Shown here: positions 61,515 through 64,000 of the stretch, one piece after another
How the letters are laid out: the number at the start of each line of letters is the position of its first letter
How positions within the stretch are numbered: the first letter of the stretch is position 1
Source of the DNA: a virus
Reading direction: 5' to 3' (one strand)
Virus record (IMG/VR): IMGVR_UViG_3300005573_000063
Coordinates: 32,001-96,000 of that record
Length of the DNA stretch: 64,000 nucleotides
The notes under the pieces: model-generated
Databases searched by the model: none
Seen by the model: only the letters and a program-made list of their open reading frames with translations
Told to the model about the DNA's origin: nothing
Translations under genes and position numbers: made by a program

Positions 61515-64000
61515 ATGCACAGTTTCACGAGAAGAAAAAGATTATATCCTGTTGCCGCTAATGGACAAAAAACAGCTTCTAACGAGGCTATACTTGCTCA
61601 TATGCAATCTAAGCATGGAATGCCTTTCGAGACAGCACTTGCATGGAAAAAAGGATTAGATAATCCAACAAAGTATGGATACGCAGATCAAGCTCGTGTA
61701 GGAGGACAGCTGCTCAGAGTTCATAATTATCAACACCGACACCCTGATTCTCTTAATGGCATAAATCAGCCTGGGAAGGTGTACCATGAACATGGTGCAC
61801 TCCATAGAAGTCTCTATAATCCTCCTTCTCCTAAAAAGAAGGCAAATACATATCACCAGGCAGATAACCATTTGCACCCTATAGTAGAAAAGGGTATTCT
61901 TCCAATACAGGAGTGGGATCATTACCAAGATGTAGCAGAAGCATTGGCTAAACTACCTTCTCACGCTAGGCGCCCTCCTATCCCTTCAAGTAAGACTGCC
62001 GACAATGTGAGACAATGGACAGAAGGTAATTGGTCTAGCATGAGAGCCTTCATGGAAGAGCTGCATAAAGGCAACTACGATCAGTATTTCCCTCGTACTG
62101 ATGCTGGGCTCTATTCTTTATGGCATCATTCACCTTCCACTGAGAAGGAACTACATAGGGGGCTGCGTAGTAAGAAAAGCCTTAATGAACTGGAACAACT
62201 TCTTGATACCAATCCAGTTCTTCATGACCAATTCAACTCATGGACTGAAGATCCTTTAGTAGCTAATGATTTTGCAAGACGTAGGACACCTGCTGTGGGT
62301 ACGCCTATTATTATGCACCTTCAAGGACCAGCTAAGACTCTCAATATCTCTCCTTATTCAAGTATTGTTGATGAAAAAGAACACATAGGGCGTGGACCAT
62401 ATCAGGTTGTATCTCATAAGAGGAGTGCAGACAATAAAGCATTGCATGTGAATGTAAAAGCAGCAGAGCCGGTACCAGGTATAGAGGAAGATTCACTTCC
62501 ATCTATTTACTCCAAGAAGATTGCAGGAAAAGAGTATCGAAAGGGGGGTCCAAACCTTCATCGAGCTGCTGTTTTAAGAAATACCATTCGCCGTGAACAG
62601 AGATTAGGAGGGATTCTAGATACCAAACGCCCTGAGTGGCGTGCTCAAAAGTATGCCCCTTGGGATGTAGGCCCGACGGGGGCATTCTATGATAATGAAC
62701 CCATAACCTCTCTGCCTGCAGATACATCTATTCGCCAAAATCTTATTGAACTAGCACATGATTTGAATTCAGTTCATCATGATTACTATCCTCACAACAG
62801 GAAGGCTAAGAATTCTGATGATTATGTATGGCCGAGTTCTTACTCTCCTGTCCTCGATCACCCTGAGCATGAAAAGATGCTTCATGATAAATACTTCACT
62901 GGTCCTCAGTCTCCCACTATGGATTCTACCTTGCGTAAGATAGGATTATCTCTGCAGGGTACGGATAATCACAAAAGGCGTCATGACCCTTATCAATTCA
63001 CTTTATCTAATGCACCTAGAAATAGTCCCGAATTACATAGAGGAGTAGCTAGTCTATTACATCCTAAGACCTTAGAAGAACGCCTTATTCCCGGAAATAT
63101 GTTCAAGGATAATCCACGCTCTTGGTCTTCCAATGAGAGATATGCTCAGGAATGGACGGGCCAGCCGACTGCTCACCGGATGAACTCTAAAATAGTATTT
63201 CATCTTCCTTCTAATTCTCAAGCTCTTCAGGTATCTCCTATTTCTCGTATTCTAGGATTAGACTTCGAGCATCAGAATGAATGGCAAGCAGGGGGACCTT
63301 ATAAGATCAATTCGGTCGATCATGCAGTGAATAATGGACACAGTATCTATCATGCACAAGTAGAGCAAGTTTCTCCAGAAGAATTTGATAAGTGGGCGCA
63401 ACAAAACAAATGGACTGAACCCCCTTCTTTCTTTAAGGCTCTGAAAGATGAGCGCACACAAGATGATAAGAAGTCTGGTGAGAAAACAGACAAAGAGTTA
63501 CAAGAAGAGAAGTGGACAGAACCTCCTGATTACTTCAAAGACTCGGTACATTCTCAGACATCTACCAGAAGAGGTAAGCGCCACTTCCAAAGGATTATTG
63601 CATCTAATCCTTCTACTCCGGACCAAATTCTAGCTAGCTCACCTCATCTGAATGATTTCTTAGATACAAATGATGTAGGGAACTTGCGTGACCATGCAAA
63701 TGCTCTTAATGGATCTTTAGATGATCTGTCTCTTGAAGATCACGTTCAAAGCTTTAAGGACGCCTTCCCACGTCACCCCCTTATTCATGGCATAAAGCAA
63801 TGGACTCAAGATAATTCAACTCCTATTAGAAAGACCATGGAGAAGTTTCATAAGGGGAATACTCCGTTGGAGTTTGATCCTCGTGCAGATGATTATGATA
63901 AGTTTCCTGAAGACTCTGCTAATCTTTATGCAGCATGGGCGCAAGCTCCTCATAATTCACTTGAACTACATAGGGGTATAAAGTCTTCTAAGTCAGTAGA
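61515..64000 (+). CDS. Polyprotein: N-terminal six-His domain plus at least three R-S-E ADP-ribosyltransferase domains (3' truncated, absent from ORF track)
   Basis: Manual translation is open from ATG 61515 to the window end; ELHRG...NSWT...DEKEH; ELHRG...RSWS...HQNEW; third ELHRG near 63963. Confidence 0.8.
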   Translation, partial: MHSFTRRKRLYPVAANGQKTASNEAILAHMQSKHGMPFETALAWKKGLDNPTKYGYADQARVGGQLLRVHNYQHRHPDSLNGINQPGKVYHEHGALHRSLYNPPSPKKKANTYHQADNHLHPIVEKGILPIQEWDHYQDVAEALAKLPSHARRPPIPSSKTADNVRQWTEGNWSSMRAFMEELHKGNYDQYFPRTDAGLYSLWHHSPSTEKELHRGLRSKKSLNELEQLLDTNPVLHDQFNSWTEDPLVANDFARRRTPAVGTPIIMHLQGPAKTLNISPYSSIVDEKEHIGRGPYQVVSHKRSADNKALHVNVKAAEPVPGIEEDSLPSIYSKKIAGKEYRKGGPNLHRAAVLRNTIRREQRLGGILDTKRPEWRAQKYAPWDVGPTGAFYDNEPITSLPADTSIRQNLIELAHDLNSVHHDYYPHNRKAKNSDDYVWPSSYSPVLDHPEHEKMLHDKYFTGPQSPTMDSTLRKIGLSLQGTDNHKRRHDPYQFTLSNAPRNSPELHRGVASLLHPKTLEERLIPGNMFKDNPRSWSSNERYAQEWTGQPTAHRMNSKIVFHLPSNSQALQVSPISRILGLDFEHQNEWQAGGPYKINSVDHAVNNGHSIYHAQVEQVSPEEFDKWAQQNKWTEPPSFFKALKDERTQDDKKSGEKTDKELQEEKWTEPPDYFKDSVHSQTSTRRGKRHFQRIIASNPSTPDQILASSPHLNDFLDTNDVGNLRDHANALNGSLDDLSLEDHVQSFKDAFPRHPLIHGIKQWTQDNSTPIRKTMEKFHKGNTPLEFDPRADDYDKFPEDSANLYAAWAQAPHNSLELHRGIKSSKSV

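Follow-up and report, generated by a model that had tools for sequence, protein, structure and literature searches.

The subject of the present work is a giant gene which begins near the right-hand end of a 64,000-nucleotide stretch of viral DNA (the window), corresponding to G000:C1:32001-96000 of the 122,096-bp virus record IMGVR_UViG_3300005573_000063. The product of the gene, labelled P0002, is a chain of 2637 residues which is best interpreted as a polyvalent effector, encoded in the late region of an uncultured myovirus and acting after its injection into the host; we place the probability of this interpretation at roughly 0.6. From its N-terminus the chain carries a histidine-rich module, three ADP-ribosyltransferase (ART) domains, a possible ParB/sulfiredoxin-like domain and four kinase domains, with a domain of no named family lying between the second and third kinases. 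Polyvalent proteins are defined as single polypeptides of phages or conjugative elements that contain at least two biochemically disparate domains, and P0002, which joins three ARTs to four kinases, falls within this definition.

The identification of the three repeats as R-S-E (Alt/VIP2/C3-like) mono-ADP-ribosyltransferase domains with complete catalytic triads, of the forms ExE, QxE and ExE, is supported by sequence comparison and modelling, because a profile of the family matches an ART of solved structure, the first repeat is predicted to adopt the ART fold, and the triad is kept in three copies. The same identification had been put forward in an earlier reading of the window made from the letters alone (the sequence-only reading), together with the observation, which holds, that the catalytic motifs of the copies differ.

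The giant gene and its copies in other assemblies

Translation yields a frame which is open from a TTG at 61455 and an ATG at 61515 through the edge of the window, with 828 codons counted from the ATG and no stop codon, in agreement with the single open frame described in the sequence-only reading. The ATG is favoured over the upstream TTG because a Shine-Dalgarno-like GAAGGA, identified by direct reading of the sequence, is situated at 61506..61511 (+ strand), 3 nt before it. The record extends beyond the window, and the gene can therefore be read to its end. The portion inside the window (61515..64000, + strand, 2486 nt) constitutes the 5' part, and the complete gene occupies L002:515-8428 (7914 nt, 2637 codons; an L002 coordinate is the window position minus 61000), ending with a stop codon at L002:8426-8428 (G000:C1:101426-101428), about 5.4 kb past the window edge. 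Two thirds of P0002, including the four kinase domains, lie outside the window. All residue numbers given below refer to P0002.

The open reading frame (ORF) had been regarded as un-called, which turns out to be mistaken: a public protein collection holds an identical 2637-aa protein, along with three further members at identities of at least 90%. One relative of P0002 has 2643 residues and is 98.6% identical to it, and the copies on other contigs are 98.6-99.8% identical. The gene is therefore real, recurrent across assemblies and already called.

The near-identical copy on a 22,985-bp contig from another assembly appears as two separate gene calls, of 2038 aa and 572 aa (P0152 and P0151), a split which leaves residues 2039-2065, within the third kinase repeat, uncovered. 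In a third copy (P0150), 17 of the 36 differences fall within residues 2000-2099.

Layout of the ADP-ribosyltransferase repeats

The internal repetition of the chain was evaluated by a self-comparison in which P0002 was cut into 120-aa pieces and each piece was compared with the whole protein. Residues 165-320 match residues 760-906 at 41-42% identity (E 1.6e-26), residues 498-599 match residues 809-906 at 36% (E 1.6e-14), and residues 206-300 match residues 500-600 at 28% (E 9.5e-8). A local profile search of all of P0002 finds exactly three ART copies, with envelopes at residues 161-331, 459-630 and 756-926, so that the three domains proposed in the sequence-only reading are retained and the suggestion that there might be more is not. 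Identities among the repeats range from 26% to 41%, and the third is closest to the first (41%), a resemblance which had also been noticed earlier.

The R, S-x-S/T and [EQ]-x-E elements of the triad are kept, in that order, in all three repeats. Repeat 1 (residues 161-331; 61995..62507, + strand) carries R215, S242-W-T244 and E287-K-E289, and repeat 2 (residues 459-630; 62889..63404, + strand) carries R509, S536-W-S538 and the QxE variant Q587-N-E589; these are the motifs, at the same places, that had been read in the first two domains. Repeat 3 (residues 756 to about 1015) starts at 63780..64000 and continues on the same (+) strand to about L002:3559; its R820 lies within the window, and its S847-W-S849 and E894-E-E896 lie past the edge. 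This repeat, of 260 aa, can be aligned along its full length to P0003 and P0004, which are stand-alone proteins of 443-450 aa, and because of this alignment it would appear to contain an insert of about 85 residues before its last strand, A1009-L1014, which is similar to A309-V314 of repeat 1.

The acidic linker between repeats 2 and 3 contains two copies of a direct repeat, W-T-E-P-P-x-[FY]-F-K (window 63411-63527, residues 633-671).

Profile, fold and family of the ADP-ribosyltransferase repeats

A profile built from the three repeats retrieves 148 proteins, P0002 included, at E of 1e-3 or lower among 1.84 billion representatives. The ART family profile used for more distant comparison was derived from 45 aligned sequences, namely the three repeats and 42 short homologues, in which R55, G56 and E129 never vary and S82 and G134 hardly do. 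This profile matches the entire domain of the Vis ADP-ribosyltransferase, an enzyme of solved structure, at E 6.4e-13, and its hRG, SSfS and EkEw positions are aligned to Vis; its match to ExoT is at E 0.037. A profile made from 169 foreign domain copies, from which P0002 was excluded, scores repeats 1, 2 and 3 at 138.0, 134.8 and 143.0 bits respectively, a check which is not fully independent because the 169 copies were picked by their likeness to the repeats.

The fold prediction is in agreement with the profile match. An AlphaFold2 model of repeat 1, computed from the 45-sequence alignment, has a mean predicted local distance difference test score (pLDDT) of 89.7 and a predicted template modelling score (pTM) of 0.84, so that this repeat does model as an ART fold. 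The best Foldseek match in the PDB is Vis (4y1w; E 5.4e-7, TM score 0.62), followed by ExoS, C3 and HopU1, and the PDB matches listed are ARTs or ART-toxin entries. VIA-align gives a Z-score of 13.0 to Vis 4xzj (153 aligned residues, root-mean-square deviation 3.7), then 12.4 to C3bot2, 11.5 to iota Ia and 10.9 to VIP2, with Z ranging from 13.0 to 10.6 across the best 50 entries listed. The matches to predicted viral structures in BFVD include phage ARTs and T4-type RNA polymerase ADP-ribosyltransferases (ranks 22, 31 and 33), as well as proteins annotated as portal, minor capsid and head morphogenesis proteins.

The 148 proteins contain 172 domain copies, in 158 of which R-G is present and in 159 S-x-S/T; the catalytic element is ExE in 115 copies, QxE in 29, and something else or gapped in the other 28. 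With 29 occurrences among 172 copies, the QxE form is a minority variant that recurs in the family. Chains with several ARTs are likewise not unique to P0002, because 19 other family proteins carry two or three copies. The family matches were also divided by length into a short group (at most 700 aa, n=105) and a long group (n=42, of which 31 were scanned and 11 left out). The cut-off of a Pfam ART family is passed in the matched region by 4 of the 105 short proteins. Phage_Mu_F is present in 11 of the 105 short proteins (above the cut-off in 10) and in 11 of the 31 long ones, and portal domains are present in 4 of the latter. The ART-PolyVal / Tox-ART-HYD2 family (PF18760) has no match in P0002, whose active site is of the R-S-E and not the H-Y-D type.

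A 953-aa protein from another source, P0107, carries two ART copies and one kinase domain, the latter scoring 46.1 bits against a profile of the four kinase repeats described below.

Kinase repeats and the remaining regions of the chain

Self-comparison and Pfam delimit four kinase repeats, all on the + strand, at residues 1222-1470 (L002:4178-4924), 1471-1731 (L002:4925-5707), 1961-2210 (L002:6395-7144) and 2285-2549 (L002:7367-8161). Pfam PI3_PI4_kinase scores 88.1 bits over four stretches (cut-off 27.1) and HipA_2 scores 79.1 bits (cut-off 27). In the numbering of their alignment, all four repeats keep the lysine K58 (S-I-A/E-K-G), D150-R151 and N155 (D-R-x-x-x-N), and G167-E171 (G-I-D-H-E), and the four domains, which are PI3/4-kinase/HipA-like, look catalytically intact at the level of these motifs. 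Their profile match in the PDB, to a type II phosphatidylinositol 4-kinase (PI4K), is weak and confined to the catalytic loop (E 0.0073), and the NCBIfam search of the repeats returned nothing other than the SCO1664 family, at 69.9 bits, below its cut-off of 172.4.

Behind the ARTs, residues 1030-1215 (L002:3602-4159, + strand) may form a ParB/sulfiredoxin-like domain, as a protein-atlas feature search relates them to ParB_N and sulfiredoxin clusters at 0.93-0.94, a lead based on fewer than 170 shared features; Pfam on residues 921-1228 and NCBIfam on residues 1030-1215 returned nothing. The domain of no named family between kinase repeats 2 and 3 (L002:5708-6394, + strand) belongs with unnamed viral clusters: residues 1735-1900 are related to such atlas clusters at 0.88-0.89 and to PHROGs phrog_17808 at E 0.0031, and have no NCBIfam match. 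Translation places a Pro/Lys-rich tail in the last 88 residues (L002:8162-8425, + strand).

Genomic setting and the proposed mode of action

The record is that of a myovirus, with sheath, tube-like, tape measure and baseplate genes at G000 16-31 kb, and the window also encodes a minor tail protein, helicases, a DnaE-type polymerase, a UvsX-like recombinase and a ribonucleotide reductase (RNR). The giant gene lies between the terminase gene (window 46402-48417) and the portal gene, which follows it at a distance of 6 kb (L002:14406-17468), on the same strand.

Under the preferred interpretation, P0002 would be synthesized late, would be loaded into the head, and would enter the next host along with the DNA, either whole or in pieces. 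There the ART domains would use NAD+ to ADP-ribosylate host targets and the kinase domains would phosphorylate host proteins, with the joint outcome that takeover of the cell is aided or its defence blunted. All of these steps are modelled on the published account of polyvalent proteins (PMC5512222, PMC9503650). Delivery in the virion, which is argued by analogy, is suggested by the position of the gene between terminase and portal, by the fusion of ART relatives to MuF and portal domains, and by the same published model.

Several results weigh against this interpretation, in part or as a whole. With regard to the ART assignment, Pfam ADPrib_exo_Tox (PF03496) reaches E 0.025 and 14.3 bits on repeat 3, below its cut-off of 23.4 bits; repeats 1 and 2 have no Pfam ART match (PF03496, PF01129) at E of 10 or lower; a single-sequence phmmer search of repeat 1 against the PDB gives a chance match at E 1.8; and the fold evidence concerns repeat 1, with repeats 2 and 3 resting on profile scores. 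With regard to delivery, P0002 contains no Phage_Mu_F (PF04233) at E of 1 or lower, nor any in the pieces scanned at E of 10 or lower, and family scans recover from it no portal domain or recognizable capsid-targeting element. The association of the family with MuF and portal domains is limited to a minority of its members, because Pfam assigns no family at all to 79 of the 105 short proteins or to 13 of the 31 long ones. No MuF domain or prohead protease is recognized near the giant gene, no major capsid gene is identified in the record, and the nearby peptidase (window 49056-49799, + strand) is papain-like (Pfam Peptidase_C1 29.9 bits; phrog_16701) and is not a known prohead protease. Finally, a tblastn search of P0002 against 50,697 isolate phage records found no match, and a scan of viral contigs for relatives of P0002 confirmed none.

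Alternative explanations

The lack of a detected MuF domain, portal domain or capsid-targeting element in P0002, together with the lack of an identified prohead protease or major capsid gene beside its gene, would be in keeping with a protein that is not packaged at all, and is instead made during infection in order to modify host or phage proteins late, within the producing cell only. T4 ModA and ModB act only inside the cell that makes them, and a ModA-annotated protein is found among the BFVD fold matches of repeat 1, at rank 48. This explanation is somewhat unlikely; it must be set against the location of the gene, which has terminase on one side and portal on the other, all on one strand, against the fusion of many ART-domain relatives to head proteins, and against the arguments of PMC5512222 and PMC9503650, in the portions drawn on here, for the packaging of large multi-enzyme phage proteins whose genes lie next to packaging and head genes.

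A second question, which is separate from that of delivery, is what the ARTs modify. ExE ARTs usually modify arginine, and QxE ARTs modify asparagine (C3) or guanine (pierisin/scabin). Judged by their motifs, the two ExE copies of P0002 would most likely act on arginine and the QxE copy on another acceptor, for example asparagine or a nucleobase. It is rather unlikely that at least one repeat, chiefly the QxE repeat 2, acts on something other than a protein, be it a nucleic-acid base or a small molecule, or that it hydrolyses NAD+ and so drains the cell of it. The Q587-N-E589 of repeat 2 and the recurrence of QxE as a minority state of the family fit such an activity, QxE enzymes include DNA-modifying ARTs, and the deposited structure of the best solved match, Vis, contains agmatine, a small guanidino compound. 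Against it, the C3-type QxE enzymes, which modify asparagine in proteins, are among the top fold matches, and the sequence offers no way of separating the options.

It is very improbable that the repeats are degenerate or serve a solely structural purpose and that P0002 is a large protein of the head interior, or one used in ejection, without catalysis, as might be supposed from the failure of every Pfam ART score to reach its cut-off and from the identities of only 26-41% among the repeats, given that R, S-x-S/T and the catalytic E are kept in three ART copies, that Lys, D-R-x-x-x-N and G-I-D-H-E are kept in four kinase copies, and that none of the 36 differences in variants from other contigs falls at the five catalytic positions of repeat 1 examined.

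The histidine-motif minigenes and the N-terminal module

On both sides of the giant gene are tandem minigenes of 61-102 aa, about 41 in number and often overlapping by 1-4 nt, which share the motif G-L-x-x-H-x4-H ... H-x3-H ... H-x-H-G/P with its six conserved histidines. The count was obtained with a local hidden Markov model (HMM) of 33 minigenes, which gives 41 copies at E of 1e-3 or lower. Seven lie upstream of the giant gene (window 58403-60001, + strand), 26 downstream of it (L002:8478-14364, + strand), seven at window 14216-16065 (- strand), and one in the minigene regions near the start of the record (G000:C1:2372-3435 and 5417-5617, - strand); there are about six weaker copies besides. 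The minigenes occupy about 9 kb of the 122-kb record, and their products have pairwise identities of 12-43%, a median pI of 8.2 and a median histidine content of 9.6%. Pfam on 34 aligned members gave single chance-level matches only, a profile search of the PDB gave a best E of 0.45, and NCBIfam gave nothing. A search for homologues among proteins of 33-179 aa by a shared-word method found only three, all from the phage of P0002 or from near-identical contigs, and the AlphaFold2 model of a minigene product is poor (pLDDT 65.8, three helices).

The histidine-rich module at the N-terminus of P0002 (residues 22-95; 61578..61799, + strand) matches the minigene HMM weakly, at 12.1 bits over HMM positions 4-69, with E 1.1e-5 when P0002 is the sole target and a domain E of 0.013 among the 1190 six-frame ORFs of the genome. 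The match covers the HMM end to end with all six histidines aligned, and five of the histidine columns are invariant when the module is taken together with the 33 minigenes. A functional tie between the minigenes and the giant gene is suggested by this weak match and by their adjacency, and may be imagined in two ways: the giant chain and the approximately 41 minigenes could form one system with a shared metal-binding histidine handle, or the minigenes could serve as a recombination reservoir for the 5' end of the giant gene. Both proposals are doubtful enough to be regarded as improbable. If there were one system, the histidine module would direct the loading of proteins into the capsid or their exit from it along with the DNA, and small histidine-module proteins would be co-injected with the seven-enzyme chain bearing the same handle. 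A cargo-addressing or diversification scheme of this kind, if real, would be new for polyvalent proteins.

Other features of the surrounding sequence

The portal protein (1020 aa; L002:14406-17468, G000:C1:107406-110468; phrog_2833, E 5.3e-152) carries an intein at residues 206-322 of its own chain (Pfam Intein_splicing 42.1 bits, cut-off 35.8). From about L002:18600 (G000:C1 about 111600) to the end of the record at 122096, the G+C content rises from about 42% to 68-71%, and ORFs overlap in all frames. The final 10.5 kb probably do not belong to the phage and would stem from either an assembly chimera or a junction, and because of this segment the head module is cut short.

Immediately upstream of the giant gene, a 72-aa ORF (window 61192-61410, + strand) contains two cysteine pairs, C-S-S-C ... 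C-P-T-C, which on visual inspection resemble a zinc ribbon; neither Pfam nor NCBIfam returns a match for it. A terminator-like hairpin with an 11-bp stem followed by a T run (61142..61171, L002:142-171, + strand) separates this ORF from the preceding one. Within L002:1-15000, neither terminator-like sites (7, compared with a mean of 11.1 in shuffled sequence) nor sigma-70-like promoters (39, compared with 35.9) exceed the numbers found after shuffling, and there are no tRNA genes in L002. The identity of the DnaE-type polymerase to those of Mycobacterium phages does not exceed 33%, and no host or taxon is assigned from it.

Significance

If P0002 is delivered with the DNA, a single protein would introduce into the cell, as soon as infection begins, seven enzymes of post-translational modification representing two chemistries. 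Its ART copies appear from their motifs to have diverged in acceptor specificity. The protein is a natural test bed for the target choice of ExE and QxE enzymes and for the roles of HipA/PI4K-like kinases in phages, and also for the question of how very large cargo that has no MuF or portal anchor enters and leaves a capsid. P0002 also extends the polyvalent concept to R-S-E ARTs, which PMC5512222 states to be absent from such proteins.

Comparison with known systems

The concept of the polyvalent protein is already published, and P0002 is a further variant of it, in which R-S-E ARTs are combined with PI3/4K/HipA-like kinases. In the parts of the work of Iyer, Burroughs, Anand, de Souza and Aravind (2017; PMC5512222) used for this comparison, polyvalent proteins are described as virion-embedded and probably injected, several ART copies may occur in one protein (up to 12 in one case), and small related ORFs are found near a kinase-bearing polyvalent gene. 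P0002 resembles these proteins in joining disparate enzyme domains (ART, kinase and possibly ParB-like) in a chain encoded amid packaging and head genes. It differs in that its ARTs are all of the R-S-E type, whereas those described there belong to the H-Y-D (Tox-ART-HYD2) clade, and in that it has no MPTase, MuF or RNA polymerase (RNAP) module. The kinases are also described differently, as PI3_PI4_kinase/HipA_2 by Pfam in P0002 and as Ser/Thr/Tyr-kinase-like without a C-terminal subdomain in the published proteins; the words HipA and phosphatidylinositol do not appear in that paper.

A 2022 survey of NAD+-ADPr systems (PMC9503650) proposes, in its section 3.7.1, that Alt/VIP2 ARTs are probably packaged in the head when they are joined to MuF or have terminase and portal genes as neighbours, and the excerpts of both publications considered here report ARTs to be enriched in myoviruses. 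The MuF- and portal-fused phage ARTs of that section belong to the same ART family as the repeats of P0002, which differs from them in lacking MuF and portal domains, in combining three ARTs with four kinases, and in carrying an orphan histidine-rich module at its N-terminus. A full-text literature search brought up, among the matches listed, no paper on this architecture.

The bacterial toxins Vis (Vibrio splendidus), C3, ExoS/ExoT, VIP2 and iota Ia share the predicted fold and align at the R, STS and ExE positions, but their identities to the repeats are 10-18%, and they are secreted proteins acting on eukaryotic cells, whereas P0002 is a phage protein in which none of the translocation or binding domains of the Vis, C3, ExoS, VIP2 and iota toxins was found. 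T4 Alt is likewise an R-S-E ART of a myovirus, and its role as an injected head protein, as presented in the sources cited above, is the proposed functional model for P0002; Alt has a single ART domain, in contrast to the three of P0002, and the likeness between the two is detectable only via the fold.

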